A stretch of 64,000 nucleotides of DNA from Escherichia coli (GCA_902500055.1 GCA_902500055.1_4131.1), one strand, 5' to 3'. Numbered from the stretch's first letter, positions 4,310 through 22,600 are shown. Program-made: numbers and translations. Notes: generated from the letters alone by a model not told the origin.

Positions 4310-4511
4310 TTTGAATCTCCTAACTTTGTGGGCCGTCGCACCATTGCCGCCCTACGAGATACATTATTGCAGTACTGATATACTTTGTCAATACTTTTTT
4401 TATTAATAGTTTTCACTCCACCAGCAGATAGTTACTCACCGTTATTAACTATATATTTTGGATACACTTATGCACCCTGTGGGCTAGTTTTTGTCTATGC
4501 GTATATAATAG

Positions 4512-4555
4512 CAAAGGGACTGACCGGAGTCAATCCCTTTTTTTATTCTTTTTTG
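4512..4555 (-). terminator. UNCG-tetraloop intrinsic terminator (bidirectional)
   Basis: Hairpin GGGACTGACCGGAGTCAATCCC flanked by A-run and T-run. Confidence 0.5.
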
Positions 4556-4756
4556 TTAGATGATTCTCCAATCATCAACGATCATGGTAAGATACCGAAC
4601 CAGTGATTCGAGTGATTCGTGTTCTCGATAGTCTGCCGCACCGCCAGCGGTACAAGTACAGCCGATTAAGCCGTTTTGCAATTCCTTAATCTGTACATCG
4701 ATAAGGTTGGCTTTAGCTTCTTTCAGTACTTCAACCAGGGCGATAGCGATAGACAT
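4556..4756 (-). CDS. hypothetical protein
   Basis: ORF track 66 aa. Confidence 0.55.
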   Translation of the reverse strand: MSIAIALVEVLKEAKANLIDVQIKELQNGLIGCTCTAGGAADYREHESLESLVRYLTMIVDDWRII

Positions 4757-4778
4757 AATGTTTTACTCCAAACTATTG

Positions 4779-4842
4779 GCGGGAGAACTATTCCCCCGCT
4801 CTATGTAAAACATTATACATTACTGGTTAGTACTGTCAAATA
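4779..4842 (-). promoter_or_regulatory. promoter plus 5' stem-loop cassette (PeSL-like)
   Basis: -35 TTGACA (4835-4840), 17 nt, -10 TATAAT (4812-4817), hairpin GGGAGAACTATTCCCCC. Confidence 0.55.
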
Positions 4843-4846
4843 GTTT

Positions 4847-5104
4847 TTATGAAATATCTTCGATGTAGTCGGCCCATTTCATTTTTTCAGTACTGTCAAG
4901 TGCAATCGGATTGCTAGGATCAAACCATTCACCATTCCCGCAATACATCCCCACGGCGACGGTTTTATATCCATCCTGGGCCGCACTCCACGACATTGCA
5001 CGATAGATATGGCCTTTAACTGGTTGCAGTACTGGTAACGTTTTATGGTCTTCTACGTAGGCCATAGCTTGAGGATTTACCCGATATTGTGTGAATTGAT
5101 CCAT
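4847..5104 (-). CDS. hypothetical protein
   Basis: ORF track 85 aa. Confidence 0.55.
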   Translation of the reverse strand: MDQFTQYRVNPQAMAYVEDHKTLPVLQPVKGHIYRAMSWSAAQDGYKTVAVGMYCGNGEWFDPSNPIALDSTEKMKWADYIEDIS

Positions 5105-5180
5105 TATGTTTCCCCTTGTAGTTAGTAAAGTTATTACATCAGTACTATCAAGCTATGTCAATAGTACTGAAATAAAACTT

Positions 5181-5405
5181 TTAGATTAGATTATTGAGGC
5201 CGTTGATGGTAGACTCGCTTTCTTCTTTCTCCCATTGGCGGTAGTACTTCCATGCTTCATGATATGTGGCGATTAGTTCATCTTTTTGATCCTGGTTACA
5301 TGCCAGTACTGAATCACGGTGAGCGGTGTTATAGATAGAATCGAATGATTTCTTCTCTTCTGCCAGGTTAGCTACTTCCCGCATCAGTTCATCAAAGTTA
5401 GCCAT
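5181..5405 (-). CDS. hypothetical protein
   Basis: ORF track 74 aa. Confidence 0.55.
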   Translation of the reverse strand: MANFDELMREVANLAEEKKSFDSIYNTAHRDSVLACNQDQKDELIATYHEAWKYYRQWEKEESESTINGLNNLI

Positions 5406-5421
5406 TTTATTACTCCTTTTA

Positions 5422-5482
5422 GTGGGGGAGGATATCTCCCCCTATGCAAAACATTATACTTTGTTTTAGTTATTATGCAAGT
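5422..5482 (-). promoter_or_regulatory. promoter plus 5' stem-loop cassette (PeSL-like)
   Basis: -35 TTGCAT (5475-5480), 16 nt, -10 TATAAT (5453-5458), hairpin GGGGGAGGATATCTCCCCC. Confidence 0.55.
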
Positions 5483-5736
5483 ACTTTTTTCATATAAACA
5501 TTAAATTCTACACCGCCGTAACCTTCCACGATGATATGTTTTGCGTTATCACGCTTGCACATAGTGAAACCGTTGTTGATATGTTCTGCATTTTCCAGGG
5601 ATACATCACCGATTGCAGCACATACGGCACTAATAACAGTATTCCGCAAAGTACTGGTATCATTAGCGGTCATAGTAGTTTGCAGTACTACGTTGTCGTA
5701 TACGTGTGCATTGATAGTGATTTCGATAGTGTTCAT
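5473..5736 (-). CDS. hypothetical protein
   Basis: ORF track; start trimmed to Met19 (MNTIEITI) with GGAG RBS. Confidence 0.55.
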   Translation of the reverse strand: MNTIEITINAHVYDNVVLQTTMTANDTSTLRNTVISAVCAAIGDVSLENAEHINNGFTMCKRDNAKHIIVEGYGGVEFNVYMKKVLA

Positions 5737-5754
5737 GGTGTATCTCCTGGACTT

Positions 5755-5818
5755 GAGGGGAAACCATTTCCCCCTCTCGATATAAAACATTATACGTTAA
5801 TCTAACTACAATGCAAGT
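5755..5818 (-). promoter_or_regulatory. promoter plus 5' stem-loop cassette (PeSL-like)
   Basis: -35 TTGCAT (5811-5816), 16 nt, -10 TATAAT (5789-5794), hairpin GGGGAAACCATTTCCCC. Confidence 0.55.
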
Positions 5819-5823
5819 ACTTT

Positions 5824-6015
5824 TTAAATTTTATTTCCGATATAGTCCGGCATGTTCTTTTCAGTCATACGCTTTGCTAATGTCTGCATATGGCTTATAG
5901 CGTTCAAGGTGTCTTCCTCCAGGGATGAATCAAGATAATCAGGATCATTCTTCACCTTGCAATGATTATGATAGCGTAGTACAGCCAGTACTTTTTTAAC
6001 TTCTTCAACTGTCAT
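5824..6015 (-). CDS. hypothetical protein
   Basis: ORF track 63 aa. Confidence 0.5.
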   Translation of the reverse strand: MTVEEVKKVLAVLRYHNHCKVKNDPDYLDSSLEEDTLNAISHMQTLAKRMTEKNMPDYIGNKI

Positions 6016-6284
6016 AATAAGTACCCCACTTCGTTAGCTTTCAGGTTAGTATCAATCATCAGTGGATTTTTGTAGTTCACAAAACGATTAGTTTTCTCGA
6101 TAGCGAATCCCATATAATCCAGCTTGCTTACAGTACATTCATTCTTAAAAACTTCTTTCGCTGTATCGATGGCTGATTGCATGGATAACCGCCCATCTAA
6201 ATTAATGTTTCCAAATGATCCACCAGCAGAAGTAGGATTACCGTTCATATCTTTAATGATCATAGTAGCGGAGTAGCTGGACAT
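6012..6284 (-). CDS. hypothetical protein
   Basis: ORF track 90 aa; ATGA overlap with downstream gene. Confidence 0.55.
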   Translation of the reverse strand: MSSYSATMIIKDMNGNPTSAGGSFGNINLDGRLSMQSAIDTAKEVFKNECTVSKLDYMGFAIEKTNRFVNYKNPLMIDTNLKANEVGYLL

Positions 6285-6372
6285 AATTTTGTTTCCTTTT
6301 ATTGGTGGGGGAGAACTATTCTCCCCTTGATGTAAACTATTATACAGTACTGATATACTTTGTCAAATACTT

Positions 6373-6777
6373 TTATTCGCCCATATAGATTAAGTTATCA
6401 TCGCCTACATAGGGATCGCAAACGTTGATTTCTTCGCAGTACTTCGTGAATACATCGCCATAGTGACCTAAACCACGATCCCAAAAACCAGTTCCGTGAC
6501 CTTCGCGGGTAAGGAACAGATCATGACCAGCTTGCTCATAACCGTAATCAATAAACATACCGCGAACTACTTCCAGATCATTACCGTGTTTCTCAATGAA
6601 GCGAGAACATGCAATCACCGCCGCTTGACGTGCTTCATCAGATAACTCATAATCTTCCAGGTAATCGCCGTTATCATTATGTACAGTACTGAATTGCATA
6701 GCTTCAATGTAACCAGCGACCATTGCAGCATGATTTTTATCGTTGGCGATATTCCGAGCAAGATTAGTAGTAGTCAT
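6373..6777 (-). CDS. hypothetical protein
   Basis: ORF track 134 aa. Confidence 0.6.
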   Translation of the reverse strand: MTTTNLARNIANDKNHAAMVAGYIEAMQFSTVHNDNGDYLEDYELSDEARQAAVIACSRFIEKHGNDLEVVRGMFIDYGYEQAGHDLFLTREGHGTGFWDRGLGHYGDVFTKYCEEINVCDPYVGDDNLIYMGE

Positions 6778-6861
6778 GATTTTATTCCTTTTAGTATCGG
6801 GGAGAACTATTCTCCCCTTGATGTAAACTATTATACAGTACTAAGATACTTTGTCAAATAC

Positions 6862-7083
6862 TTAATTACGTTTAAAATGATATGTACCTTTATCATCCTG
6901 TACGCCCCATACTGATTTACCATCAACACCAGTGAAGCCGGATTGTAATTCAATATGGAAACCATTATTATCAACTACAAAAACTTTTTTATTTTCATCC
7001 CGATAACATTGATATTCTGAATCAACATTAAAGGCCGCATCATTCAGACGATTGGAAGCGTAAATGCAAGTCATTGTAGTCAT
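6862..7083 (-). CDS. hypothetical protein
   Basis: ORF track; start trimmed to Met12. Confidence 0.5.
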   Translation of the reverse strand: MTTMTCIYASNRLNDAAFNVDSEYQCYRDENKKVFVVDNNGFHIELQSGFTGVDGKSVWGVQDDKGTYHFKRN

Positions 7084-7264
7084 GATTTTATTCCTTAATA
7101 TACCAGGGAGAACCATTTCCCCCTCTCGATATAAAACATTATACTTGATTCTAAGTACAATGCAAGTACTTTTTAAAAAATAGTTTTCAGTACTGAATAC
7201 TTATATAATAGATACACTTCCGCACCCTATGGGTCAGTGAGTTATCTCTCAATGGATATATAAT

Positions 7265-7300
7265 AGCAAAGGGACTGACCGGAGTCAATCCCTTTTTTAA
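7265..7300 (-). terminator. UNCG-tetraloop intrinsic terminator (bidirectional)
   Basis: Hairpin GGGACTGACCGGAGTCAATCCC 7271-7292, T-run on plus side. Confidence 0.5.
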
Positions 7301-7306
7301 TCTTTT

Positions 7307-7891
7307 TTATCGTGTTACCTTACTTGCTGCCACATCACGCTTTTTATAGTACTGATTCCAGATATTGCAGGTTAAACCGTAATCAAGTACTTTAATAAGG
7401 CCATTACGATCCTGGCCGATATTCTGTTTTCTGATATCTCTTATCGTTAGTGTTGATAATGTATCATCGACGTGTTGTAGTGCATCAGCAAAGCGGTGCT
7501 GGCGTTCGATTGCATTACGTTTAATATTGTACTTTAATTCATTGCACGCGTTTACGTGCTTCACACTACCTTTGCTTGCAGTACTCAACCGATCCATAAC
7601 GATAAACATATTATCAGGATCGCATAAATGCATATGCACCTTTGCAAAGTACTGTTTCAACTGAGGGCGGTCATAGTCTAAAAAATTCCATACCTTACAT
7701 TCAGTTTCATTTTGTTCTACACCCGCATCACAATTCGCGACCTTAATCACTAACCGATCATTTAAAGCGAAAACTATACGGGAAGAACCAGCACCGATGA
7801 TCTCCAGGCCAGCTAACCGACAAGCTGAAAGGATCTCTTTGTTGGTTTCCATTTCTGACAGTGTACGGATGAATTTAGTATAATTACGCAT
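7307..7891 (-). CDS. eukaryotic-like Ser/Thr protein kinase
   Basis: Gly-rich loop IGAGSSRIVF, VIKV lysine, catalytic loop IRDIRKQNIG, DFG-like IKVLDYG; start trimmed to Met20 with AAGGAGAA RBS. Confidence 0.7.
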   Translation of the reverse strand: MRNYTKFIRTLSEMETNKEILSACRLAGLEIIGAGSSRIVFALNDRLVIKVANCDAGVEQNETECKVWNFLDYDRPQLKQYFAKVHMHLCDPDNMFIVMDRLSTASKGSVKHVNACNELKYNIKRNAIERQHRFADALQHVDDTLSTLTIRDIRKQNIGQDRNGLIKVLDYGLTCNIWNQYYKKRDVAASKVTR

Positions 7892-7922
7892 TGCATGTTC
7901 TCCTTGAGTTAATGAAACTATA

Positions 7923-8165
7923 TTACAGTACTTTACTATCAATGGCAACTACTTTTTTAACATTAACGGCGTGGATCACTTCCTTCGTGTTTTTAGTACT
8001 GAATACTTTCGCCGCTCCTTGTTCGACCGTGATACGATAGCGACCATTAACATCAACCATATTAATAAAGTCCGGCGTGCTGAATGGTGTTGTTTTACAT
8101 TTGAGTACTGTTAACAGTTCCACCAGCGATGTAGTTTCTTTGATACGTTTTTCTAAAGTAATCAT
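7923..8165 (-). CDS. hypothetical protein
   Basis: ORF track; start trimmed to Met20; upstream 57 nt is a repeated promoter (TTGACA-17-TACTAT). Confidence 0.5.
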   Translation of the reverse strand: MITLEKRIKETTSLVELLTVLKCKTTPFSTPDFINMVDVNGRYRITVEQGAAKVFSTKNTKEVIHAVNVKKVVAIDSKVL

Positions 8166-8222
8166 TTTGTTTCCCCCGTGTTGGTATGTACATATAGTAC
8201 TAAAACATTTGAGTACTGTCAA

Positions 8223-8441
8223 TTAGATAATATTATATTTCTTTAAAGATAATGCGTCTTGGGTTGGCTGATACTCGATACCGTTCCCATTATTGACTTC
8301 AACTAATAAACCTTTGTCAATTAGTTTTTTAATAGTACGATACCCCTGTTGAAAATTGGTAAAATGTGAATCATTACGAAAGGTATAACCGTGCTTAACT
8401 GCTTCATCAATAGTTTTCTTTTCGATTTTAGATAATTTCAT
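8223..8441 (-). CDS. hypothetical protein
   Basis: ORF track; start trimmed to Met20; same repeated upstream cassette as 7923-8165. Confidence 0.5.
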   Translation of the reverse strand: MKLSKIEKKTIDEAVKHGYTFRNDSHFTNFQQGYRTIKKLIDKGLLVEVNNGNGIEYQPTQDALSLKKYNII

Positions 8442-8494
8442 TTTGTTTCTCCCGTGTTGGTATGTGTACATAATACTAAAACAATTGAGTACTG

Positions 8495-8749
8495 TCAACG
8501 TGATATTAGTTTTATTTTCTTATTATATTGTTGGTGTTCATATAGGTTTATTTTTCCTGTGTTCTCTATTACTATTCTGTTGTTAGTGTCCACATCGATT
8601 ACACGCAGTTTCCCGTTGCTTAACTTCCTTGGTAATAGGTTACCATTAATAAACTCATTAGCAAGCTGTACGGCCTTTGTGATGATTCTCTTCGGTGCTT
8701 TATAGTGTACCCGTAAGATGTTATCTTTATATAGTTGAACCTTAATCAT
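8495..8749 (-). CDS. hypothetical protein
   Basis: ORF track 84 aa. Confidence 0.5.
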   Translation of the reverse strand: MIKVQLYKDNILRVHYKAPKRIITKAVQLANEFINGNLLPRKLSNGKLRVIDVDTNNRIVIENTGKINLYEHQQYNKKIKLISR

Positions 8750-8761
8750 TTTGTTTGTCCT

Positions 8762-8789
8762 ATAAAAAAGGCGGGATCAGTTCCCGCCG
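8762..8789 (-). terminator. intrinsic terminator
   Basis: Minus strand hairpin GGCGGGAACTGATCCCGCC followed by T-run. Confidence 0.55.
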
Positions 8790-8810
8790 TGTTGTTAGTA
8801 CTGCAAGTTA

Positions 8811-9206
8811 TTAGATAACCTGGCGGCGTTTACTGTATACTGTTACACGATTACCCTTACGATCATGTCGGATCTCTTTCTGGTTGCGAATCAGTTCACT
8901 TGGACGCTTAAGGTTTGCCAGGTGATCCGCGTGAGTCCATGCGGTGTGGTTTACCTGTACTTTGATATCAGAATCAGCGATAAACTCATCTTGTGCGTCA
9001 AGTATTGCCGCCAGCATATCCGCTCGTTTTAGTTCTGCTGCTGTTAGTACTGGCTCAGGTGAATTCACAATATCAGAGATTTCTTTGAACTGTACGGCCC
9101 AGCGTTGACCTTTCGGTGCTGTCGTTCCCATGTCTTTAAATGCTGCTCCTTCCTCGCGTGCAACAATACGGGCAGCTTCACGGGTAGCGTAGAATTTAGT
9201 AATCAT
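8811..9206 (-). CDS. hypothetical protein (paralog of 20866-21132)
   Basis: Shared motifs YFATRE.AR, FKDMG, RWAV, RKGNRVTVY. Confidence 0.6.
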   Translation of the reverse strand: MITKFYATREAARIVAREEGAAFKDMGTTAPKGQRWAVQFKEISDIVNSPEPVLTAAELKRADMLAAILDAQDEFIADSDIKVQVNHTAWTHADHLANLKRPSELIRNQKEIRHDRKGNRVTVYSKRRQVI

Positions 9207-9301
9207 GGTATACATCCTATTAGTTGAGTTAGTACTACAAGTTAGAGTCTATTATAAAGTACTATCTGGGCAATGTCAAATAGTACTTTAAATGGATTCT
9301 A

Positions 9302-9625
9302 TTACATGTCTTTCTTACGTTTTACATCGTAGTAGCGAACTGTTATTTCTTTGTTAATCTCTTTTTCGATGCGGTGAATAACTTTTTCTTTCGGGTTGAA
9401 ACCTATAACGGTTTCTTTAATGATCTCCAAACCAGTGTATTCGCCTTGCGTACCGTAACCGTATGTAAAGGTTTCGTGTCCCAGGTCTTCCCAGCGGTCG
9501 CCAATTAACGCAGACACGTAGCAAGAGTGGTAAGTATTGCCGTTCCGATCAGTCCAGCGATTAACTTTAATGTCAAAGGAGGTTACAATTTTCAATTCCA
9601 CTTTCTGGGTAAGGATCATAGCCAT
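9302..9625 (-). CDS. hypothetical protein (paralog of 15258-15602)
   Basis: ORF track 107 aa; shared YGYG core and C-terminal VKRKKD. Confidence 0.6.
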   Translation of the reverse strand: MAMILTQKVELKIVTSFDIKVNRWTDRNGNTYHSCYVSALIGDRWEDLGHETFTYGYGTQGEYTGLEIIKETVIGFNPKEKVIHRIEKEINKEITVRYYDVKRKKDM

Positions 9626-9712
9626 TTTTATTTCTCTCTCTTTGTTAGGAGGGGAACCATTTCCCCGCCTTGATGTAAACTATTATACAGTACTAAGATA
9701 CTTTGTCAATAC

Positions 9713-9988
9713 TTAAGTATTGTAAATGTCGTGAATAGTGATAAAGTTTTTACGCCCGTAAACCTGTAAATCGGTATTAATGTAATGCTTATCAAGTACA
9801 TCCTCGACGCTTAAAGCCGTGTCGTGAATATCTTCGTAGAATTGAGGATCTACAATCTTGCTTAAGTCATCCGGCGTTAACTTATCGTTAAGCCATTGAA
9901 CCGCCTGGATATCTGCATCACGTTTCCATTGTTCCAGGTTAGTAGTCAGTACTTGTTCGATTTCGTTAGCTGTCAGTAGAATCCGCAT
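9713..9988 (-). CDS. hypothetical protein
   Basis: ORF track 91 aa; preceded by long duplicated leader. Confidence 0.55.
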   Translation of the reverse strand: MRILLTANEIEQVLTTNLEQWKRDADIQAVQWLNDKLTPDDLSKIVDPQFYEDIHDTALSVEDVLDKHYINTDLQVYGRKNFITIHDIYNT

Positions 9989-10002
9989 TTTAATGTTTCC
10001 TT

Positions 10003-10190
10003 ATCAGTGGTTGATGTAAGTATTATACTCGTTTACTTTCTATTGTCAAACTATTTTATCAGGGGAGTTTTTCGTATGTCTTACTCCTGGACTACTTAAC
10101 GGGGTTACTTGTTTCGTTCCCCGTCCTGATGTAAAACATTATACTTGATTCTAAGTACAATGCAAGTACTTTTTAAAAATAGTTTTCAGT
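10003..10190 (-). repeat. duplicated leader cassette with tandem promoters (copy 1 of 2)
   Basis: Near-identical to 20138-20320; contains TTGACA-16-TATAAT plus PeSL-type promoter and two hairpins. Confidence 0.6.
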
Positions 10191-10312
10191 ACTTGATAGT
10201 ACTAGCCACCAGCAAACAATAGATACATTTATGCACCCGGTGGGCTAATTTGTTTCTATGCGTATATAATAGCAAAGGGACTGACCGGAGTCAATCCCTT
10301 TTTCAATTATTT

Positions 10313-10462
10313 TTAAACTTCTTTCGGGTTGCGATAGGTGATAGCGTTCGGGTACATTTGTTTAATGTTATTCCATGCCTGGTTAACATTATAACCACTT
10401 GAGCGAATCAGTTGGTTACTACCGACACCTTGAAACACTACTTCAAATAAGAATTCTTTCAT
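10313..10462 (-). CDS. hypothetical small protein (49 aa, below ORF-track cutoff)
   Basis: Manual translation MKEFLFEVVFQG...; ATGA overlap with upstream gene stop. Confidence 0.4.
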   Translation of the reverse strand: MKEFLFEVVFQGVGSNQLIRSSGYNVNQAWNNIKQMYPNAITYRNPKEV

Positions 10463-10632
10463 GCTTTCACCTCGCTATCTGCTTTGCCTTTACGCCAGGC
10501 CGTTGCTAATTGTTCGCGTTGCCATAAGTCGAGTGATACGTAAAGTTTTGCATTATCACCCTTCGGATATTCGCCAGTAGTACCAATCCGATAAAACAGA
10601 TCTTTCAGTACTGTTAATTCTACCTGGACCAT
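10459..10632 (-). CDS. hypothetical small protein
   Basis: ORF track; start trimmed to Met35 (MVQVELTV) with AGAGGA RBS. Confidence 0.5.
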   Translation of the reverse strand: MVQVELTVLKDLFYRIGTTGEYPKGDNAKLYVSLDLWQREQLATAWRKGKADSEVKA

Positions 10633-10718
10633 TATACTTTCCTCTTTGTTAGGAGGGGAACTATTCCCCTTCCGATATAAAACATTATACACTTTATTCA
10701 GTACAGTGCAAGTACTTT

Positions 10719-10931
10719 TTAATCTTTCAGCCAATGATCCTGAATGAATTTTTCACCGAAACCTTGCTGCATTGATTGTAACAGACGTTCGCGATGAGCG
10801 GCGGCGAATTGCTCAGTACTATGCGTTACACCTGGTTGATATCTGGATTCACCATTGGGGGCGATGTATTGTACATCCCACGGTTTTTCGTTAGTATCAG
10901 ACCATTTACGAACGATTAGTTGACCTTGCAT
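10719..10931 (-). CDS. hypothetical protein
   Basis: ORF track 70 aa. Confidence 0.5.
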   Translation of the reverse strand: MQGQLIVRKWSDTNEKPWDVQYIAPNGESRYQPGVTHSTEQFAAAHRERLLQSMQQGFGEKFIQDHWLKD

Positions 10932-11017
10932 TTTTCTTTCCTCTTAGTGGGGAGAATCATTTTCTCCCCTTCATGTAACTTATTATACAGTACTATAATC
11001 TATTGTCCAGTACTTTT

Positions 11018-14578: not shown

Positions 14579-14583
14579 ATTAA

Positions 14584-16121: not shown

Positions 16122-16207
16122 TTTAGTTTCCTTGTAGTGGGGAGAACCATTTTCTCCCCTTGATGTAATGTATTATACTTTATTCGATTTACTTTGCAAG
16201 TACTTTT

Positions 16208-16435
16208 TTAATTTAATTCATCAAGGCAAAGGATACGCTCAACGCCCAAATCAGTTAAACTAATCGACGGCACTTGATAGGTTTCAATGTATGCTACACT
16301 TGCCCACTGACCGAACTCATTAACGGCCCAGGTATTCATTGCATTTTGCAATTCCGCACCTTCCTTGTTGGTAATGACTGCAACTACTTGTTCGTTGCCA
16401 GTAGTACCAGATACGCGAGTAATGATAATAGCCAT
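16208..16435 (-). CDS. hypothetical protein
   Basis: ORF track; start trimmed to Met20. Confidence 0.5.
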   Translation of the reverse strand: MAIIITRVSGTTGNEQVVAVITNKEGAELQNAMNTWAVNEFGQWASVAYIETYQVPSISLTDLGVERILCLDELN

Positions 16436-16669
16436 TGTTTTGATTCCTTTGATTTGGAAGGAGAACCGTTTCCCCCTCTCGATGTAAAACATTATACGCT
16501 AATCTCTTAATCGTGCAAGTACTTTTTATTACTTTTTGCAAAATACTTTAAACGCACTCAATCGCATTCTAACGACTTTAACGCCACCAGCTAGGGCAAT
16601 GCATCAGATAAACAGTTTAATACGTTAGAATCGTTTCTAGGCGGTGCTGGTGGCCTGGTAAACGATAAA

Positions 16670-16700
16670 CACAAAAAAGCCCACTGTATAAGTGGGCTAA
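16670..16700 (-). terminator. intrinsic terminator
   Basis: Minus strand hairpin AGCCCACTTATACAGTGGGCT followed by TTTTTTGTG. Confidence 0.55.
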
Positions 16701-16719
16701 TGATTCAGTACTTTAATTG

Positions 16720-17202
16720 TTATGCTTCAACTTTGCGATGAGCTTCGATCCATTCCTCGCGAGTCATACCACTGGAGTTAATCGCATCCAGTACTACCGC
16801 AATGCAGTTACCACGCACCGGAATCAGATATTCTTCCCCGTTATCAAGTACTACCGCTACACGTTCTTGAATCCATTTTTTAGCTTTTACTTCTGGCTTA
16901 TCTTCACCGTACTTTTTCGCCAGGGCTTTTTGTGCCATCTCTGTAACTACTTCCAGATCCAATCCAACTACTGCCGCCTGAATACTTTCAATTGTTGCTT
17001 GTAGTTCTGCTTCACGGGCCGCCTTTGCCGCTTCAATTTCTGCCGCTTTATTTGCTTGTAGTTCTTTCGCAGTACTGTAAGCGATGTTAAAATTATTGCG
17101 TACCGCTTTCATGGTATCGTTATCCAGTTCAGCCAGGATCTCAGCCGCGACGTTAGTTTCATTTGCTACCAGTGCTTTGATGAATGATTTTACATTAGCC
17201 AT
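16720..17202 (-). CDS. hypothetical Ala-rich coiled-coil protein
   Basis: ORF track; start trimmed to Met6 with GAGGA RBS. Confidence 0.6.
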   Translation of the reverse strand: MANVKSFIKALVANETNVAAEILAELDNDTMKAVRNNFNIAYSTAKELQANKAAEIEAAKAAREAELQATIESIQAAVVGLDLEVVTEMAQKALAKKYGEDKPEVKAKKWIQERVAVVLDNGEEYLIPVRGNCIAVVLDAINSSGMTREEWIEAHRKVEA

Positions 17203-17401
17203 TTTATAAATCCTCAATTAAAGTTTAGTTTACGTTTATTAGTGTATCAAAGTTTTCTCGACGTGTCCAGTTTTTCGTTCGACTTACTGGCGGTCTACTT
17301 AGTGCTCCCCGTCTTGATGTAATACATTCTACGCTTTTCTGCGGTAATGTCAACTACTTTCTTAAAACTATTTTCAAAGTATCTCAGTACTACGATACTA
17401 C

Positions 17402-17431
17402 AAAAACAAAAAAAGCCCACCAGGTGGGCTA
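17402..17431 (-). terminator. intrinsic terminator
   Basis: Minus strand hairpin AGCCCACCTGGTGGGCT followed by TTTTTTTGTTTTTG. Confidence 0.6.
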
Positions 17432-17436
17432 TGTAC

Positions 17437-17667
17437 TTAATCAGTGAGTAAAATATTAAACACTTTACCATTTAACGTTATTGGTGCACTGCTACCAGGC
17501 TCAAGATCCGTTAATATACCTGCAATCGCTTTATCATTGGCGACCTTTCCAGTGTCCAACAGTACTACAGTACTGATAAGATTAACGCTCGTTTCAATAT
17601 CATAATGCACGGCGTTAAGTAGTTGTGTAGTACTGCTTTCGTTAAGTAAAACAATTCGCTTAGTCAT
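17437..17667 (-). CDS. hypothetical protein
   Basis: ORF track 76 aa. Confidence 0.5.
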   Translation of the reverse strand: MTKRIVLLNESSTTQLLNAVHYDIETSVNLISTVVLLDTGKVANDKAIAGILTDLEPGSSAPITLNGKVFNILLTD

Positions 17668-17688
17668 GATGTTACCCCGTAGTATCTA

Positions 17689-17988
17689 TCAACGGCAATT
17701 AATAACGCCGGTATGCGTTACTTTCTCAGTATCCATTACAGTGACCGAACCGCGTTTAGTACTGGCATCATAATAAATTGTCGTGCTACCGTTTTCGTCT
17801 TCTTCATGGAACGGGCCGTTTTTAAATGCTTCCGGCTGAATCTCCAGATCCTTTAATACAATCTCGCCAGTACTTTCATCGGTCATTGCAACAGTGCACT
17901 GAATGAATTTTTCACTACTTACATCTAATGACGCATTAACAGCGAAAGAGGAAACAGATAAAGCCAGGGCGATGATTGTAATTTTCAT
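17689..17988 (-). CDS. secreted protein (signal peptide)
   Basis: N-terminus MKITIIALALSVSSFAVNAS. Confidence 0.55.
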   Translation of the reverse strand: MKITIIALALSVSSFAVNASLDVSSEKFIQCTVAMTDESTGEIVLKDLEIQPEAFKNGPFHEEDENGSTTIYYDASTKRGSVTVMDTEKVTHTGVINCR

Positions 17989-18072
17989 TTGATTATCCTT
18001 AGTTACCAGGGGGAACCGCTCCCCCTTGCGATGTAAAATATTATACAGTACTAAAAACTATTATCAAGTACT

Positions 18073-18309
18073 TTATGATTTTTTATAAAACATTTCAGCA
18101 GTGATATTTTTACCCGTTGGCTGTACTTTATCCAGAATTTTTTGATGCCCTGGTCGTCCAAAGGAATATGATCCGTAAACAGTAAACCAGTAGTTGCCAT
18201 CAGTGTTTACATGTACAGCACAATAGGGTACGCCCCGCGATTCATCACTAGTAAAGTGTGCTACCGTTCCCGTTACATTCGAAGTCGTTGATTTGATTTG
18301 TTCAAGCAT
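18073..18309 (-). CDS. hypothetical protein
   Basis: ORF track 78 aa. Confidence 0.5.
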   Translation of the reverse strand: MLEQIKSTTSNVTGTVAHFTSDESRGVPYCAVHVNTDGNYWFTVYGSYSFGRPGHQKILDKVQPTGKNITAEMFYKKS

Positions 18310-18553
18310 TTTATTATTCCTTAGTTACCAGGGGGAACCGCTCCCCCTATGCAAAACATTATACGCGTTTAAAAACTAATTGCAAGTATTTTAATAAAAA
18401 GTATTTGAAAAATAGTTGTTGACAAGTGCATCCAGTACTGGCATAATTACTACATCAAGACGAAACAGTCACTAACCCACCGGGTGCCGAGATCCGTCTA
18501 TTAAATGATTCAGTACTGAAAAAGTAACGGGGAGTTATTATCTCCCCGCGTTG

Positions 18554-18775
18554 TTATTTTGTAAGGTATAAACAGAAGTCGCCTTTATTTGCTACGCCGC
18601 CAGTGTAACGCGATGAATAGTTAGAAACGTCCTGGACTTCTGCTATTACCAGGGTATCATCATTCAATTCGTCGCAGAAGCAAACGGCTGGATCTTGTAC
18701 GCCGATTTTGTCGGCATGTTCCCGCATAGATTTCACCAGTGCTTCCAGTTGGGAAAGAGTAGTGATATTAGCCAT
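18554..18775 (-). CDS. hypothetical protein
   Basis: ORF track; start trimmed to Met11. Confidence 0.5.
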   Translation of the reverse strand: MANITTLSQLEALVKSMREHADKIGVQDPAVCFCDELNDDTLVIAEVQDVSNYSSRYTGGVANKGDFCLYLTK

Positions 18776-18863
18776 TTTATTTTCCTCATTACCAGGGAGA
18801 ACCATTTCTCCCTTTGATGTAAACCATTATACAGTACTGAAAACTAATTGCAAGTACTTTTTT

Positions 18864-19124
18864 TCAGTATTGTTTATCGTCGTCTTCCTCGATGAATTGA
18901 CCGACGAAATGATCTACTTTCGCTTTGAGGCTTTTATAATCTTCTTCTACTTCCGTTAAACGTTCCTGGTAGTATTCCAGTGCCTCAAGATACGCCGCCT
19001 CAGCAGTTTTTGCACGCATAGCTAAATTCATTCCACGCGTTTCATCATAAAGCCAATAACCATCGGTGCACTGGCTAATAGATAATGACTTGCTTAGTGC
19101 TGTATAGCTAATTACTTTACTCAT
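18864..19124 (-). CDS. hypothetical protein
   Basis: ORF track 86 aa. Confidence 0.5.
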   Translation of the reverse strand: MSKVISYTALSKSLSISQCTDGYWLYDETRGMNLAMRAKTAEAAYLEALEYYQERLTEVEEDYKSLKAKVDHFVGQFIEEDDDKQY

Positions 19125-19181
19125 TAGATAACCCTCAGTAAAGGCGGGAACTATTACCCGCCATTATCTCAGTACTGAATA

Positions 19182-19421
19182 TTACATTCCAACCATTGCA
19201 GCACGGATCGCCGTAGTGCTATACTTGAATCCGTCCGGCGTTGTAGTAGTACCGTTGGCTTTTAATCTGCGGTACATACATTCCGCAGCAATATCTTTCG
19301 TTTTACTTTGTGCGATGCAATTTTGAGCAATCCGGTATAATGATTCATCGTTATTGATCCAAAGGCTTACATTCCAATGAGTTTTGTTTTTGTGCCCGTT
19401 GTAAGTTTTAGTACTAGCCAT
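19182..19421 (-). CDS. hypothetical protein (paralog of 21221-21460)
   Basis: Shared HKNKTHWNVSLWINNDE and TPDGFKYSTTAIRAAMVGM. Confidence 0.6.
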   Translation of the reverse strand: MASTKTYNGHKNKTHWNVSLWINNDESLYRIAQNCIAQSKTKDIAAECMYRRLKANGTTTTPDGFKYSTTAIRAAMVGM

Positions 19422-19511
19422 TTTTAAATCCTCGTTTGAGCGGGGAACCACTCCCCGCCTTGATGTAAAGTATTATACGCTTTTAAACTTAGTTTACAAG
19501 TACTTTTTAAA

Positions 19512-20120
19512 TTAATATTCGATTGATTCCACTACGCCATCAATAACATTGAATTGATATTCGTTACCCTCAATCAGTGCAGTAATGTTTTCAGTAGTGA
19601 ATTGATCCTCATATGCATTCTCTAAATCACGGTACAACTTACGAGATAATTCACGGATCGCATCAGTCAGTAAGTTTTCCAGATCCTCAGCCAATGCCGC
19701 CTGTTTTACAGTTAAATCAGTGTAGCGAGTATCAACGCAACCGCCTACCGTGTTTTCGTGTGCGTAGCGTGATTGGAAACGTTCTACACTCATTTCTAAA
19801 TCATCCTCGTTCAACAGGTGACGGATTGAACGATATTTCGTTAACGCCTTAACCTTGCGTAAAAACTTCTCAGCGTCAACGTGGTTAGTACTGATTGATG
19901 CACCGTCACCTTGCGACCAAAAACCACTGTATTGCAATTCAGCTTCATCTATGCCGTATTCTGGTAGTACTGTTTCTTTATAGTACTCGATAACGCCCTC
20001 AGCAAAGAAATTATCCTCACATGAACGCTCACGATCCCGAACCAGTTCAATAGCCGCCGTTTTTTGTTCTGCGTTCAGTTCAGAAAAAGCCATAACAAAA
20101 GTAGTAGTGATAGTTTTCAT
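19512..20120 (-). CDS. hypothetical acidic protein
   Basis: ORF track 202 aa; GAGGG RBS; preceded by duplicated leader. Confidence 0.6.
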   Translation of the reverse strand: MKTITTTFVMAFSELNAEQKTAAIELVRDRERSCEDNFFAEGVIEYYKETVLPEYGIDEAELQYSGFWSQGDGASISTNHVDAEKFLRKVKALTKYRSIRHLLNEDDLEMSVERFQSRYAHENTVGGCVDTRYTDLTVKQAALAEDLENLLTDAIRELSRKLYRDLENAYEDQFTTENITALIEGNEYQFNVIDGVVESIEY

Positions 20121-20137
20121 TTTGTAACCCTCATTCA

Positions 20138-20320
20138 GTAGTTGATGTAAGTATTATACGCTTTTACTTTCTATTGTCAAACTATTTTATCAGGGGAGTT
20201 TTTCGTGTGCCTTACTCCTGGGCTACTTAACGGGAAGTTACTTATTTCGTTCCCCGTCCTGATGTAAAACATTATACGCCTTTAAACATAGTTTACAAGT
20301 ACTTTTTAAAAATAGTTTTC
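20138..20320 (-). repeat. duplicated leader cassette with tandem promoters (copy 2 of 2)
   Basis: Near-identical to 10003-10190. Confidence 0.6.
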
Positions 20321-20547
20321 AGTACTGAATATTAAAAAAAAGTATTGACAGCATTATCAAGTACTGGCATAATATACCCCATGACAACAGCTAACCCACC
20401 GGGTGCACAATTGTAACTATACTAAACTAATTTTTCTATAGATACACTCCCGCACCCTATGGGCTACGGCTTATCTGCCAATGAATACATTATGCCAGTA
20501 CTGACAAAATAAGTCAATACCGGCAATTGTAAAGATTTGTAAACTGC

Positions 20548-20784
20548 TTATACTGCAATCGCGTCCAGGCTGTAATAATAATAAGTGCCGTATTGGTGTA
20601 CTTTATTACCTTTTATTTCAGTACTGAATGAATCCGAACGGTTTGCATATGATGTTAATTTAAAGTACTTTGATTTGCTGATACGTTGCCATACACCACA
20701 GATCCGCTGTAAGTAAGTAGTTTTATTCGTGGTAGTATCTTTTACGGTTTTAACTTCAGTCATATACATATTAGTCATTTTCAT
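20548..20784 (-). CDS. hypothetical protein
   Basis: ORF track 78 aa. Confidence 0.45.
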   Translation of the reverse strand: MKMTNMYMTEVKTVKDTTTNKTTYLQRICGVWQRISKSKYFKLTSYANRSDSFSTEIKGNKVHQYGTYYYYSLDAIAV

Positions 20785-20865
20785 TACTCCAGGTTATAGG
20801 CGGGAAGAGTTCCCGCTCTCGATGTAAAACATTATACGCTTTTATCAGTACGGTGCAAGTACTTT

Positions 20866-21132
20866 TTATTCAAGTACTGCAATCTTTTTAGTACGGTACA
20901 CGGTCACGCGGTTGCCCTTTCGGTCGAGCTTTATTTCTACCACTCGACGCGATACACTATCGGGACTTTTTAAGGCCGCTAACCAGTACTGTAATGATCT
21001 GGCCGTACTACGCTTTACAATGGCCCAACGTTCACCACTTGCCGATCCCGCTCCCATATCTTTAAACGTTGCCCCGTCCTGGCGTGCGGCGATCCGAGCT
21101 TGTTCACGCGTCGCAAAATACTTAATATTCAT
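20866..21132 (-). CDS. hypothetical protein (paralog of 8811-9206)
   Basis: Start trimmed to Met13; shared motifs with 8811-9206. Confidence 0.6.
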   Translation of the reverse strand: MNIKYFATREQARIAARQDGATFKDMGAGSASGERWAIVKRSTARSLQYWLAALKSPDSVSRRVVEIKLDRKGNRVTVYRTKKIAVLE

Positions 21133-21220
21133 GTTGTTGCCCTTATCGTTGGTGTATGAATAAAACACTATTATAAAGTACTATCCCCGTGCAATAGTAC
21201 TTTAAATAAATTCTATTCTA

Positions 21221-21460
21221 TTACATTCCAACCATAGCCGCACGGATCGCAGTAGTGCTATATTTGAATCCGTCCGGTGTTTTATCTTGTCCAGTCTGTT
21301 CTAAAAATAACATCATATGACGGGCCGCATCATTGCGATTAGTATTGGCGGCAATAAAGTCCAGGGCCAACCGATACAATCCCTCATCGTTATTAATCCA
21401 CAGGCTTACATTCCAATGAGTTTTGTTTTTGTGACCTAAGAACATTTTTGATTTAGCCAT
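21221..21460 (-). CDS. hypothetical protein (paralog of 19182-19421)
   Basis: Start trimmed to Met14; shared motifs. Confidence 0.6.
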   Translation of the reverse strand: MAKSKMFLGHKNKTHWNVSLWINNDEGLYRLALDFIAANTNRNDAARHMMLFLEQTGQDKTPDGFKYSTTAIRAAMVGM

Positions 21461-21552
21461 TTTTTTAATCCTCTTATATAGTGGGGAACTATTCCCCACC
21501 TGATGTAAAACATTATACGCTTTTATTCAGTACTGTCAAACTAATTTTTAAC

Positions 21553-21915
21553 TTATTCGTAAATTTTGCCACTGTCAGCCCATACCAGGAAACGAGGCAT
21601 ATTATCCCATGCATCTTGTTTTAAATTTAAACCGTGTAATACTTCTGTACTTTCCATTCCTGGTACTGGTTTACTATACACCGCGAAATTTTCGCCCATA
21701 TACTGATAAACCATCGTCAAATCACTGGCGATCATCTTATGGATCATCGCATCAAGCATCACGGTGGCGGCGTATTGTTCACGCTTAAGCGGCAGCATTT
21801 TAATCAGTTCGCGGTATGCGTCAATGTGAGTTTTAACCGTTGCCGCCGGAAGATCTTTCATATCGTCGCGGAAGTTAACCAGGTTAGCAATGATTTTAGT
21901 GATTTGAGTCGCCAT
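21553..21915 (-). CDS. hypothetical protein
   Basis: ORF track 120 aa. Confidence 0.55.
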   Translation of the reverse strand: MATQITKIIANLVNFRDDMKDLPAATVKTHIDAYRELIKMLPLKREQYAATVMLDAMIHKMIASDLTMVYQYMGENFAVYSKPVPGMESTEVLHGLNLKQDAWDNMPRFLVWADSGKIYE

Positions 21916-22027
21916 CGTTTTAATCTCTTAAAAGTGAGTAGGGAAGTGTTCCCGCTCTCGATGTAAAACATTATACGCTTTTTTCAGTACTGTGCAAGTA
22001 CTTTCTACAAATACTTTTAAAATAGTT

Positions 22028-22127
22028 TTCTTTCTATATAGGGGAACTATTATTCAGTACTGAATCAATCCAGGGGAACTATCTTTCTATATAGGAGTAC
22101 TATTATTCAGTACTGAATCAATCCACT
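22028..22127. repeat. tandem direct repeat, 2 x about 45 bp
   Basis: TCTTTCTATATAGG(G/A)G..ACTATTATTCAGTACTGAATCAATCCA occurs twice in tandem. Confidence 0.7.
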
Positions 22128-22277
22128 AAATCATCCCTATACCCCGTAAAACGGCCTCAGACGCATTCTAACGCATTAATACACCTAAGCTATACATTTG
22201 CACCATTCTAATCATTCCAGGGCTTTACGGGCCGTTTAAACGCGTTAAATTATTTTCAATTATTTTGTTTTTAGGTA

Positions 22278-22305
22278 TTGACTTGATCCTGAAAAAGCGT
22301 ATAAT
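22278..22305 (+). promoter_or_regulatory. near-consensus sigma70 promoter in non-coding hub
   Basis: TTGACT-16 nt-TATAAT. Confidence 0.5.
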
Positions 22306-22420
22306 TACTACATAGACGCGAGAAAGCGGAAACCCCAGGGGGTGCGGAATTACGCCCAAAATTCAAGATATAAAAAAAGGATACACTCCCGCACCCTAGC
22401 AGGCAAACGCACTTTCTCAG
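22306..22420 (+). ncRNA. candidate small RNA unit 1 (speculative)
   Basis: Downstream of promoter 22278-22305; no ORF; shares CGAGAAAG, GGGTGC and TTACGCCCAAAATTCA blocks with unit 2. Confidence 0.25.
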
Positions 22421-22493
22421 TACTGAAATATAGTACCATAGTCCGGCCCAGGATAGCAAGCAAATTAATTAAAATTTTTTTGCTTCCAGGGTA

Positions 22494-22521
22494 TTGCTTT
22501 ATTTTTTCAGTACTGTATAAT
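22494..22521 (+). promoter_or_regulatory. near-consensus sigma70 promoter with extended -10
   Basis: TTGCTT-16 nt-TG-TATAAT. Confidence 0.5.
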
Positions 22522-22600
22522 AGTTCCATCAAGTCGAGAAAGACTCAAGCCCACCGGGTGCATAGTTACGCCCAAAATTCAGTACTGAAAAAATTTTTAA
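22522..22600 (+). ncRNA. candidate small RNA unit 2 (speculative)
   Basis: Downstream of promoter 22494-22521; paralogous to unit 1; no ORF. Confidence 0.25.

Follow-up and report, generated by a model that had tools for sequence, protein, structure and literature searches.

The recurrent motif GCACCC-N2-3-TGGGY in this stretch of DNA (the window, 64 kb of an Asteriusvirus-like, or Rak2-like, jumbo coliphage) very probably belongs to a structured RNA element of about 50 nt that is coupled to a promoter. Ten copies of this element and one remnant occur in the window, all of them inside the inferred direct terminal repeat of the phage, and related copies are found in phages of at least six lineages.

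Motif enrichment and the copies in the window

Nine exact matches to the motif were found in 64 kb where 0.03 would be expected (4472+, 7222+, 10233+, 12221+, 13618+, 18475-, 20394-, 20452+ and 22549-), and none of 100 dinucleotide-preserving shuffles of the window reached nine (shuffle mean 0.03). A frequency due to base composition is thus contradicted, and the recurrence described in an earlier sequence-only reading of this DNA is real. Each of the eight sites listed there is no more than about 10 nt away from a true copy; that list was genuine but overlooked the copy at 20452-20464 (the convergent partner of 20394-20406), a diverged copy at 22333-22345 with the core CCCCAGGGGGTGC, and a decayed remnant at 22379-22398. 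A covariance model of the wider element, run over the whole 64 kb, returned ten copies and this remnant, confined to 4.4-22.6 kb, and nothing further. The motif had also been placed outside coding sequence, and every copy in the window is indeed intergenic. Its orientation needs correction, as the five copies called forward were written as the complement of the functional strand; the transcribed strand reads RCCCAnnGGGTGC. The units, with predicted promoters, are as follows.

Unit A, 4453-4533, minus strand: promoter TTGACT-17-TATTAT (4533-4505); RNA element 4499-4453; motif 4472-4484; short-spacer class; 41.5 bits, E=1.4e-8
Unit B, 7203-7288, minus strand: promoter TTGACT-17-TATTAT (7288-7260); RNA element 7254-7203; motif 7222-7234; H1 UGAG/CUCA, loop AGAUAA; 67.9 bits, E=2.6e-15
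Unit C, 10214-10294, minus strand: promoter TTGACT-17-TATTAT (10294-10266); RNA element 10260-10214; motif 10233-10245; short-spacer class; 42 bits
Unit D, 12202-12289, minus strand: promoter TTGACA-17-TGgCATAAT (12289-12261); RNA element 12252-12202; motif 12221-12233; H1 GACG/CGUC; 38.9 bits
Unit E, 13599-13684, minus strand: promoter TTGACT-17-TATTAT (13684-13656); RNA element 13650-13599; motif 13618-13630; H1 UGAG/CUCA; 64.3 bits
Unit F, 18419-18548, plus strand: promoter TTGACA-17-TGgCATAAT (18419-18447); RNA element 18456-18506; motif 18475-18487; bidirectional terminator 18528-18548; 40.2 bits
Unit G, 20345-20425, plus strand: promoter TTGACA-17-TGgCATAAT (20345-20373); element 20385-20425; motif 20394-20406; plus-strand half of a face-to-face pair with unit H; 30.9 bits
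Unit H, 20433-20517, minus strand: promoter TTGACT-17-TGgCATAAT (20517-20489); element 20483-20433; motif 20452-20464; H1 UGGC/GCCG, loop AGAUAA; 51.8 bits
Unit I (diverged), 22278-22364, plus strand: promoter TTGACT-16-TATAAT (22278-22305); element 22313-22364; H1 CGC/GCG; variant core at 22333-22345, opposite the remnant; 26.8 bits, E=7.9e-5
Decayed partner of unit I, 22379-22398, minus strand: GCCUGCUAGGGUGCGGGAGUGUAUCC; model positions 26-45; repeat D17; 14 bits, E=0.14
Unit J, 22494-22580, plus strand: promoter TTGCTT-16-TATAAT (about 22494-22521); element 22529-22580; motif 22549-22561; H1 AGUC/GACU; 45.3 bits
Inferred direct terminal repeat, 3057-23652 (~20.6 kb), no strand assigned: matched to phage fEgEco12; contains every copy

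Unit A is co-directional with the genes, its -35 box lies inside a terminator hairpin (4540-4513), and the next features downstream are another promoter and ORF 3977-4309. An early promoter, of the ordinary kind after unit B, separates units B, C and E from ORFs 6862-7116, 9713-9988 and 13142-13483 respectively, while unit D lies upstream of the DksA/TraR-like ORF 11706-11963. In the pair of units G and H, 45 nt separate the two GGGTGC hexamers. The remnant facing unit I keeps only the core and the downstream segment, and unit J, the copy closest to the physical genome end (window 23652), is oriented towards that end. The order promoter, motif, terminator, as first described, holds only for units such as 18419-18548; it is reversed at the first copies, because the supposed terminator beside them (AAAGGGACTGACCGGAGTCAATCCCTTTTTT) is a hairpin that bears the unit promoter's own -35, TTGACT, and ends the upstream minus-strand gene.

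Predicted RNA architecture

The consensus of 111 copies is CUAACCCACAGGGUGCGGAAAUGUAUCU. The predicted RNA consists of four parts: a 5' hairpin (H1), a small RCCC-NNN-GGGU hairpin that is the motif itself (H2), an invariant UGC, and a YRYCY segment. H1 has a stem of 3-5 bp, free in sequence, and purine-rich loops of 6-8 nt (GAGAAA, AGAUAA, GCGAAA, AGAACAA), and is joined to the core hairpin by a linker of 3-4 nt (CUA or CAA). Six nucleotides ending in U follow the core GC and precede the YRYCY segment (GUAUCU, CCGUCU or ACGCCC), which is able to pair with GGGUG as an alternative fold.

H1 forms a genuine helix. At the fixed site, 4 bp or more are paired in 48 of the 95 non-redundant units on which the unit statistics are based (shuffles: mean 19.5, maximum 29), and these 95 units carry 33 distinct H1 stems when analysed copy by copy. 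In the 111-sequence alignment of the covariance-model set all four H1 pairs vary on both sides (one, for example, is CG in 36 sequences, AU in 24, GC in 23 and UA in two, with none unpaired), 93.8% of H1 cells are paired, and none of 500 shuffles attained the observed score; this alignment was fitted to the covariance model, which is offset by the per-copy analysis and by an assumption-free MI-APC scan whose top four pairs are the four H1 pairs. RNAalifold finds both H1 and H2 unaided.

The core hairpin is too conserved for a covariation signal, but RCCC is paired with GGGU in 95% of cells. Its base pair is AU in 61 and GU in 44 sequences, and such G-U pairing points to RNA. A rare compensatory double change (CCU/AGG) and a shifted-register variant that retains 3 bp plus a tetraloop were also seen. 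Each H2 contributes about -3.7 kcal/mol, and the minimum-free-energy fold includes it in 64 of the 95 units. The short RNA hairpin proposed in the sequence-only reading is therefore the best structural reading of the core, though as a part of the ~50-nt element and not as a free-standing structure.

Promoter coupling and predicted transcript layout

Sixty of 62 first-pass instances, drawn from six phage loci, have a near-consensus sigma-70 promoter on the same strand, its -10 box ending 27-35 nt upstream of GGGTGC; the consensus of these dedicated promoters is TTGACN-17-(TGn)YATWAT. The units, which lie in the small-ORF early region, are found in both orientations relative to genes, and about half of them oppose the gene direction or face a partner unit. 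Convergent pairs account for 32 of the 95 units, with gaps quantised at 45, 56, 63 or 67 nt. Gene-opposed units always end quickly. Co-directional units have a terminator on one side and, on the other, an ordinary early promoter that has been retained; they would read into the next gene and would therefore act as a leader there, unless processed.

In ten units from several phages, including unit F, a GC-rich terminator starts 45-46 nt past GGGTGC, giving a predicted RNA of 90-104 nt. Unit F itself, which runs against the gene direction, resembles a stand-alone small-RNA gene with a predicted transcript of about 100 nt, and a counterpart with ~71% identity is kept in RaK2/K64-1. Of the 95 units, 17 have a terminator-like site no further than ~104 nt away (the ten GC-rich ones being clear); the rest lack one by the criteria used or face a partner. 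A clean terminator is seen in only about a fifth of the units. The ten flanking ORFs are ORFans unrelated to one another and belong to ten different PHROG families, the sole one with an assigned function being the DksA/TraR zinc finger, and many units have no downstream ORF; we therefore rejected a gene-specific cis-regulatory leader of the riboswitch or attenuator type.

Terminal repeat and distribution

Window position 23652 is the equivalent of position 1 in phage fEgEco12, and ~3057 that of the end of its 20,993-bp repeat, which has been confirmed experimentally as a direct terminal repeat (PMC13070987). The fEgEco12 copies likewise all fall within the repeat, the early small-gene region of immediate-early host takeover. 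There are about ten units per terminal repeat, or about 20 counting both repeats.

The 111 copies come from at least six phage lineages, whose hosts are Escherichia, Klebsiella, Salmonella, Cronobacter, Yersinia and Erwinia, with model matches in RaK2, K64-1-like phages, 7t3, fENko-Kae01, Hallingskeid, and the putative GAP32, CBB and fHe-Yen9-04 counterparts. Some of the phages that bear the element share only ~29% genome-wide identity with Asteriusvirus fEgEco12 (ANI table, PMC13070987). Among GC-rich matches to the pattern that lack a promoter, the covariance model matched none. Rfam, the genomes of E. coli and of bacteria, and the literature searched yielded no counterpart; at E<=1, a cmscan of window positions 1-30000 against Rfam 15 reported nothing beyond a weak Trp_leader match at 16671-16735 (27.9 bits, gathering threshold 41), away from every unit. 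The family appears to be undescribed so far. Its seed of 52 positions, its 111 members and the clear covariation in H1 make it ready for annotators as a covariance model, for regions at present left blank or labelled only 'terminator'.

Proposed role and alternative explanations

We propose, with about equal measures of belief and doubt, that each unit is an autonomous module for an immediate-early non-coding RNA, the core of which serves as a recognition site. Autonomy is suggested by the two orientations, the unrelated flanking ORFans, the position of co-directional units, the early ends of gene-opposed ones and the convergent pairs. Each module would be transcribed by host sigma-70 RNA polymerase from its own near-consensus promoter, starting at a conserved A about 7 nt past the -10 box, so that the ~50-nt structured element would form the 5' end. 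The RNA itself would be the product, abundant straight after infection, and would serve neither as a base-pairing seed nor as a regulator of the adjoining gene. The invariant core would be recognised by a host or phage protein, and the RNA would therefore act as a decoy, sponge or scaffold. A more speculative extension, which we think unlikely, is an RNA-based host-takeover device without a described counterpart. About 20 gene copies per genome (ten in each terminal repeat) would swamp the cell during the first minutes with a structured RNA, and its invariant core would capture a host factor, candidates being an RNase, an RNA chaperone, RNA polymerase or a defence protein that senses RNA; the face-to-face pairs would additionally yield defined double-stranded RNA. 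Alternatively, the nascent element might reprogramme the polymerase in a put-like, protein-free manner, in phages for which no antitermination system is known.

An action in cis on the transcribing polymerase, like that of put, nut or ops, is a doubtful alternative. Acting as nascent RNA or by way of the non-template core strand, the element would pause or modify the polymerase just after promoter escape; the polymerase would thereby come to resist the intrinsic terminators that are dense in the early region, or would be loaded with a phage factor. The fixed short distance of the element from the predicted start site, the two adjacent small hairpins directly after an early promoter and H1 loops that, like those of lambdoid boxB, are purine-rich all suit such an action, as does the GG-N8-U-G spacing around GGGUGCnnnnnU and the G after it, which we take to resemble the consensus elemental pause. 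However, about half of the units are gene-opposed or face-to-face and then meet strong terminators or a partner; read-through in these units would produce antisense RNA over early genes. Nor is a boxA-like sequence present in any of the 95 units, the core differs from ops, and no N- or Q-like gene was recognised beside the units. We put at a similarly low level a reading of the units as regulatory cassettes of the T4 PeSL kind that move or recombine: a strong early promoter with a 5' stabilising stem-loop would spread, through recombination, from one intergenic site to another, the core being kept mainly as a cassette part (for 5'-end protection or processing) with no separate function in trans. 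Extended flanks are common to copies (repeat D15, 66-91% identity over 93 nt; repeat D20, 86% over 138 nt), both orientations and inverted pairs occur, and the same region carries 27 ordinary promoter-plus-hairpin cassettes. A 5'-terminal H1 would also suit protection from 5'-end-dependent decay, which 5'-terminal hairpins are known to confer on E. coli mRNAs. Against this, the 13-nt core and YRYCY are near-invariant over at least six genera while their surroundings, including the H1 stem, have diverged, which implies selection on the core itself; and units at orthologous positions in G17 and the window are evidently not actively moving.

As a further alternative, transcripts from these promoters might stay hybridised to the DNA and thereby prime replication or promote recombination between the terminal repeats, as at T4 oriF/oriG or in ColE1. 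This would accord with a G-rich RNA segment (GGGUG) followed by very AT-rich DNA and with multiple, orientation-independent copies found only in the terminal repeat; but H1 covariation indicates a folded free RNA rather than a hybrid, the pairs are convergent where bidirectional origins use divergent ones, and sigma-70 promoters are active before phage replication proteins exist, so that we regard such sites as very improbable. Still less probable is a protein that binds the duplex RCCCAnnGGGTGC past the start site and shuts off or blocks the strong promoters. The CCC/GGG half-sites are symmetric, the CCU/AGG double change keeps that symmetry, and a site at about +22 to +34 would be well placed for a roadblock. 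Yet the orientation to the promoter is strict, asymmetric bases are invariant, and A or G opposite the invariant U at the hairpin base is RNA wobble and not DNA symmetry. The sequence-only reading offered a protein-binding site as its other option; taken as a site in DNA, this is improbable for the core and leaves unaccounted for H1, the constant companion of the motif, with its variable sequence and strong covariation. Recent duplication did give rise to some copies (D15, D20), but an artefact of chance, composition or recent duplication is hardly conceivable and was rejected given the excess of matches over expectation, conservation at ~29% genome identity and compensatory changes in H1.

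Therapeutic use of Rak2-like jumbo phages (Asteriusvirus, Alcyoneusvirus and relatives) is under development, yet some 80% of their genes, and the whole of their regulation, are uncharacterised. A conserved, multi-copy structured RNA in the DNA that should be expressed first, in phages of at least six host genera, therefore offers a testable entry point into the start of infection. Should the RNA turn out to tie up a host factor, or to alter RNA polymerase, this would represent a new mechanism of phage takeover.

Comparison with known systems

HK022 put consists of two stem-loops, ~65-70 nt in total, that suppress downstream terminators in cis. Like put and lambdoid nut, the units place a small two-hairpin RNA directly past an early promoter, with an H1 loop purine-rich as in boxB; unlike them, they are shorter (~50 nt), present in many copies, and in some cases gene-opposed and terminator-ended. 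That gene-opposed units run into terminators argues against membership of the HK022 put type. A boxA (CGCUCUUUA-like), searched as YGCTCTTWA, is absent from -35 to +110 of the 95 non-redundant units. Compared with boxB (a 5-bp stem and a GNRA-like purine pentaloop), H1, with 3-5 bp and loops of 6-8 nt, is similar in flavour but different in size. The RfaH ops/JUMPstart sequence GGCGGTAGnnTG is absent from the 111-copy consensus.

An indirect precedent comes from the distantly related Pseudomonas jumbo phage PA5oct, in which ncRNA001 and ncRNA002 in the terminal repeat make up 2-5% of phage reads (PMC7318152). The likeness lies in non-coding RNAs from a long terminal repeat, highly expressed in PA5oct and predicted from sequence in our units; the PA5oct RNAs are 236 and 451 nt long and only two in number. 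They do not match the unit covariance model (best E=0.28), and the parallel is therefore one of analogy only.

T4-type PeSLs combine an early sigma-70 promoter with an adjacent stem-loop and are repeated among the small ORFs of a plastic early region, where they mediate the recombination or excision of ORFs that they flank. Most units show the promoter and stem-loop layout, with a promoter and H1 within a small-ORF region, but the 27 ordinary early cassettes of the window resemble T4-type PeSLs more closely; the units add an invariant core (RCCCAnnGGGUGC plus YRYCY) conserved over genera and often have no ORF following them.

The lambda PR' 6S RNA and StxS of Stx phages are short phage transcripts made close to a promoter that also serve as small RNAs; each exists in a single copy and is linked to the Q-dependent control of late genes. 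The units differ in having ~10 paralogous copies in both orientations, a third of them in convergent pairs, and a conserved structured 5' domain with no evident Q-type switch. What unit F and the other terminator-ended units share with 6S and StxS is the layout, a strong promoter for the host polymerase with an intrinsic terminator within ~100-200 nt, and the abundant short early non-coding RNA characteristic of 6S and StxS is likewise predicted for the units.

Recurrence of the motif and its coupling to promoters

A pattern search of the whole window for GCACCC-N2-3-TGGGY gave nine exact matches, against an average of 0.03 in dinucleotide-preserving shuffles, none of 100 of which reached nine. 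The recurrence in both orientations claimed by the sequence-only reading is therefore real, and a chance frequency is excluded. Every copy which that reading listed exists, while the plus-strand copy at 20452 had been overlooked; a relaxed search of the window added one variant copy at 22334-22345.

Exact pattern matches of the motif in the window
4472, 7222, 10233, 12221, 13618 and 20452, plus strand: motif copies
18475, 20394 and 22549, minus strand: inverted motif copies

In a consensus scan, a near-consensus sigma-70 promoter adjoins every motif copy in the window (TTGACA or TTGACT, 17 nt, then TATTAT, CATAAT or TATAAT, mostly with a TG-extended -10). Transcription from it would give RCCCAnnGGGUGC, complementary to the form in which the first five copies had been written. 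The order promoter, motif, terminator proposed for these five has to be turned round, the transcribed strand running from terminator/promoter to motif. A plus-strand reading of the five was rejected, as the -35 is poor there and the near-consensus promoter is on the other strand at every copy. We refer to the promoter-plus-RNA copies of the window as units A-J (A-E and H on the minus strand; F, G, I and J on the plus strand). The -35 TTGACT of units A, B, C and E falls within a GC-rich hairpin, the terminator of the upstream gene, and it is this hairpin that the sequence-only reading had taken for its terminator.

Compact terminator-promoter overlaps
4513-4540, 7268-7295, 10274-10301 and 13664-13691: terminator hairpins AAAGGGATTGACTCCGGTCAGTCCCTTT containing the -35 of the next promoter

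Across the window and five annotated relatives (G17, RaK2, Salmonella 7t3, Klebsiella fENko-Kae01 and Erwinia Hallingskeid), a first-pass pattern search found such a promoter at 60 of 62 instances of CCC-N3/4-GGGTG. The GGGTGC of these 60 lies 27-35 nt downstream of the -10 end, in two spacing classes of 27-28 and 31-35 nt. Transcripts from sigma-70 promoters usually start about 7 nt after the -10; a conserved CAU stands about 7 nt past the -10 of the units, and we infer that their transcripts start there.

The window is also rich in the palindrome AGTACT (296 occurrences against about 22 expected from base composition, densest at 4000-28000), and CAGTACTG occurs 72 times against 0.7 expected. 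The palindrome occurs both within promoter spacers (ccAGTACTggCATAAT) and 10-20 nt beyond the RNA element (UUCAGUACUGAA).

Structure of the RNA element

Units of the long-spacer class carry a 5' hairpin, H1, at a fixed place between start site and motif. Called copy by copy, H1 has at least 3 bp in 74 of 95 non-redundant units and at least 4 bp in 48, the latter against a mean of 19.5 and a maximum of 29 in shuffled controls. Its stems comprise 33 different sequences, and its loops are conserved and purine-rich (GAGAAA 15, AGAUAA 12, GCGAAA 10, AGAACAA 9). We built a covariance model of the approximately 50-nt element from a seed of 19 units with identical geometry. In the resulting alignment of 111 copies, each of the four H1 pairs varies on both sides, with pair 6-34 occurring as CG 36, AU 24, GC 23 and UA 2 and pair 5-35 as GC 49, CG 27, GU 5, AU 4 and UA 1, neither with any unpaired cell. 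Overall 93.8% of H1 cells are paired, with 164 double-change cells against 62 in shuffles, and the score was reached by none of 500 shuffles. As this alignment was fitted to the model, H1 was checked separately: the top four pairs of an MI-APC scan without structural input are exactly the four H1 pairs, and RNAalifold also recovers the hairpin.

Two further pairings, of the H1 loop (AGAUA) with a downstream UAUCU and of a 5' arm in the fold of unit F alone, were rejected as not general, the MI scan giving nothing beyond H1. A G-U versus A-C strand test on H1 was left unused because the A/C-rich loop context confounds it.

Conservation of the core is too high for covariation. Its RCCC pairs with GGGU across a 3-nt loop to form a small hairpin, H2, with 95% of cells paired. 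Its basal pair alternates between A-U (61) and G-U (44), CCU...AGG replaces CCC...GGG in three copies from different phages, and a variant core class (CCCUAGA, CCCUCAA, CCCCAGG) has CCC moved by one base, with 3 bp and a tetraloop retained. In the mutually exclusive pairing H3, GGGUG pairs with a downstream YRYCY in 89% of cells, against 33-49% in slid controls, and the variation is purely one-sided (UA 70/UG 38; GU 76/GC 31). H2 is worth a uniform -3.7 kcal/mol and H3 a mean of -2.8 kcal/mol; of the 95 units, 64 have H2 in their MFE fold and 19 have H3. We treat H2 as the predicted default fold, with H3 as a possible second one. It is very probable, in our view, that the motif belongs to an RNA element that is transcribed and structured and is coupled to a sigma-70 promoter.

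Location in the terminal repeat

By megablast, the window is 89-96% identical to the Asteriusvirus group of approximately 350-kb jumbo coliphages (G17, fEgEco12, phAPEC6, 121Q, PBECO4). Its layout, with dozens of minus-strand ORFs of 50-200 aa, is as in G17, where the region is annotated as successive small hypothetical genes on a single strand with predicted terminators between them. In phage fEgEco12, PhageTerm and restriction digests established a direct terminal repeat of 20,993 bp (PMC13070987). In exact-pattern mapping, its nt 1-40 are identical to window 23613-23652 (minus strand) and the end of its repeat falls at about 3057, so that the repeat should correspond to window ~3057-23652 (~20.6 kb). 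Every motif copy of the window lies inside this inferred repeat. In fEgEco12 itself the model gives ten copies and one remnant, all between 1,080 and 19,597, and no match in the 5 kb past the repeat; the pattern-search copies of fENko-Kae01 all fall within its annotated 19,736-bp repeat. Since the physical genome end at 23652 lies inside the window, the assembly would be permuted or concatemeric there.

Several other features were seen in and around the repeat. An 8-bp unit, TAGCCGTC, is repeated about 12 times (64% matches) at 22745-22843, in the gene-free terminal kilobase about 0.8 kb from the physical genome end; this array could be linked to packaging, end recognition or injection. GC skew changes sign near 23-24 kb and near 43-44 kb, with coding-strand switches. 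Just outside the repeat, 28309-42243 (plus strand) holds about 11 similar-sized ORFs (~330-415 aa). Kelch or RCC1-like beta-propeller domains are present in the three of them that were tested, in agreement with the annotated 'regulator of chromosome condensation' array of Hallingskeid. Runs of tandemly duplicated small ORFs of about 200 bp (60-70 aa; repeat families D13, D14 and D16) lie back to back at 2344-2850 and 24284-25902, with overlapping stop and start codons.

Arrangement relative to genes

The units occur in both orientations, whereas the genes are uniformly oriented. The gene-directed units A-E are flanked by the previous gene's terminator and by the retained ordinary early promoter of the next gene, which belongs to a 27-copy family (AAAAAGTACTTGCAA-16-TATAATGTTTTACAT) with its own 5'-UTR hairpin GGGGAGAAnnnTTCTCCCC; because this promoter is retained, the unit's own is dispensable for the next gene. 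The ordinary cassettes run from promoter through hairpin and Shine-Dalgarno to a small ORF.

Ordinary early-promoter cassettes
3900-23300 (e.g. 18817-18871, 14069-14163), minus strand: 27 copies, repeat families D1-D8

Units directed against the genes end quickly in every case. In ten units from several phages a GC-rich terminator starts 45-46 nt past GGGTGC, giving predicted RNAs of 90-104 nt (unit F in the window), and 32 of 95 units form face-to-face pairs whose GGGTGC-to-GGGTGC gaps are quantised at 45, 56, 63 or 67 nt. Within the window, pairs are formed by units G and H, with a gap of 45 nt, and by unit I and the remnant at 22379-22398. The neighbouring genes are unrelated ORFans and one DksA/TraR zinc-finger protein, and the flanking-gene families have no common theme.

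In other Rak2-like phages an AT-rich palindrome, GAGAATGATAATCATTCTC, separates the convergent elements of the pairs listed below; by eye, about 16-17 of 19 positions agree with the consensus of the E. coli Fur box. The palindrome does not occur in the window.

Convergent pairs with GAGAATGATAATCATTCTC in other Rak2-like phages
L002: 29871-29956
L003: 1346-1434 and 7622-7703
L005: 19347-19428 and 19885-19973

Distribution

At E<=0.001 the model recovered 111 copies from 44 sources, 485 kb in all. The 64-kb window has ten full copies, one remnant and nothing further; none of the GC-rich, promoter-less pattern matches of the collection scan was among its hits. By blastn, the unit at 18405-18560 matches RaK2 and K64-1 at about 71% identity, and its core is also recognisable in 7t3, fENko-Kae01 and Hallingskeid. 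An IMG/VR scan gave copies from contigs of GAP32, CBB, 121Q and fHe-Yen9-04 magnitude and from other 345-378 kb phages.

No Rfam family matches the element. A weak Rfam Trp_leader match elsewhere in the window (16671-16735, minus strand; 27.9 bits against a gathering score of 41, E=0.075) overlaps the terminator AGCCCACTTATACAGTGGGCTTTTTT and is most likely a chance resemblance to its hairpin. The ~110-nt unit F has no counterpart in E. coli genomes at E<=10; short antisense targets would be undetectable in a database of that size. The commonest core form had six matches in representative bacterial and archaeal genomes, in unrelated taxa and at about the chance expectation by our own estimate; these were rejected, having no promoter, no H1 and scores of 16-23 bits, where true copies score 25-68. 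The terminal-repeat ncRNAs of PA5oct, considered as homologues, have no model match. The searched literature on RaK2, CBB, PBECO4, 121Q, fEgEco12 (PMC13070987) and fENko-Kae01 and a 2026 jumbo-phage review give generic RpoD-like promoters only and do not mention the element.

Possible function and comparison with known systems

Given the orientations, the retained promoters, the quick ends and the unrelated flanking genes, selection seemingly favours the promoter-plus-RNA module as such, together with a block to its antisense read-through, rather than any link to a downstream gene. The conserved part is identical across paralogues while the 3' parts differ, which is the opposite of a base-pairing seed family; it suggests that a common partner recognises this part, with the many copies raising the dose. 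We put at about even the chance that the RNA is a product in its own right, serving as decoy or scaffold, as opposed to a device that works in cis; the putative partner would then recognise the conserved part of the module's product.

A cis-acting device of put/nut/ops type, working on the polymerase that transcribes it, is unlikely, as copies point antisense and converge, and boxA is absent from the units. A PeSL-like mobile cassette, its hairpins merely stabilising 5' ends, is similarly improbable, the core being invariant across genera. We give little credence to R-loop or origin sites, and still less to a duplex-DNA operator, which would leave H1 and the strict orientation unexplained.

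Both small RNAs and promoter-proximal RNAs are already known from phages, and T4 PeSL cassettes have their likeness in the window's ordinary early-promoter cassettes. Neither Rfam nor the searched literature describes the element family, the number of its copies, their restriction to the terminal repeat or their arrangement in convergent pairs.
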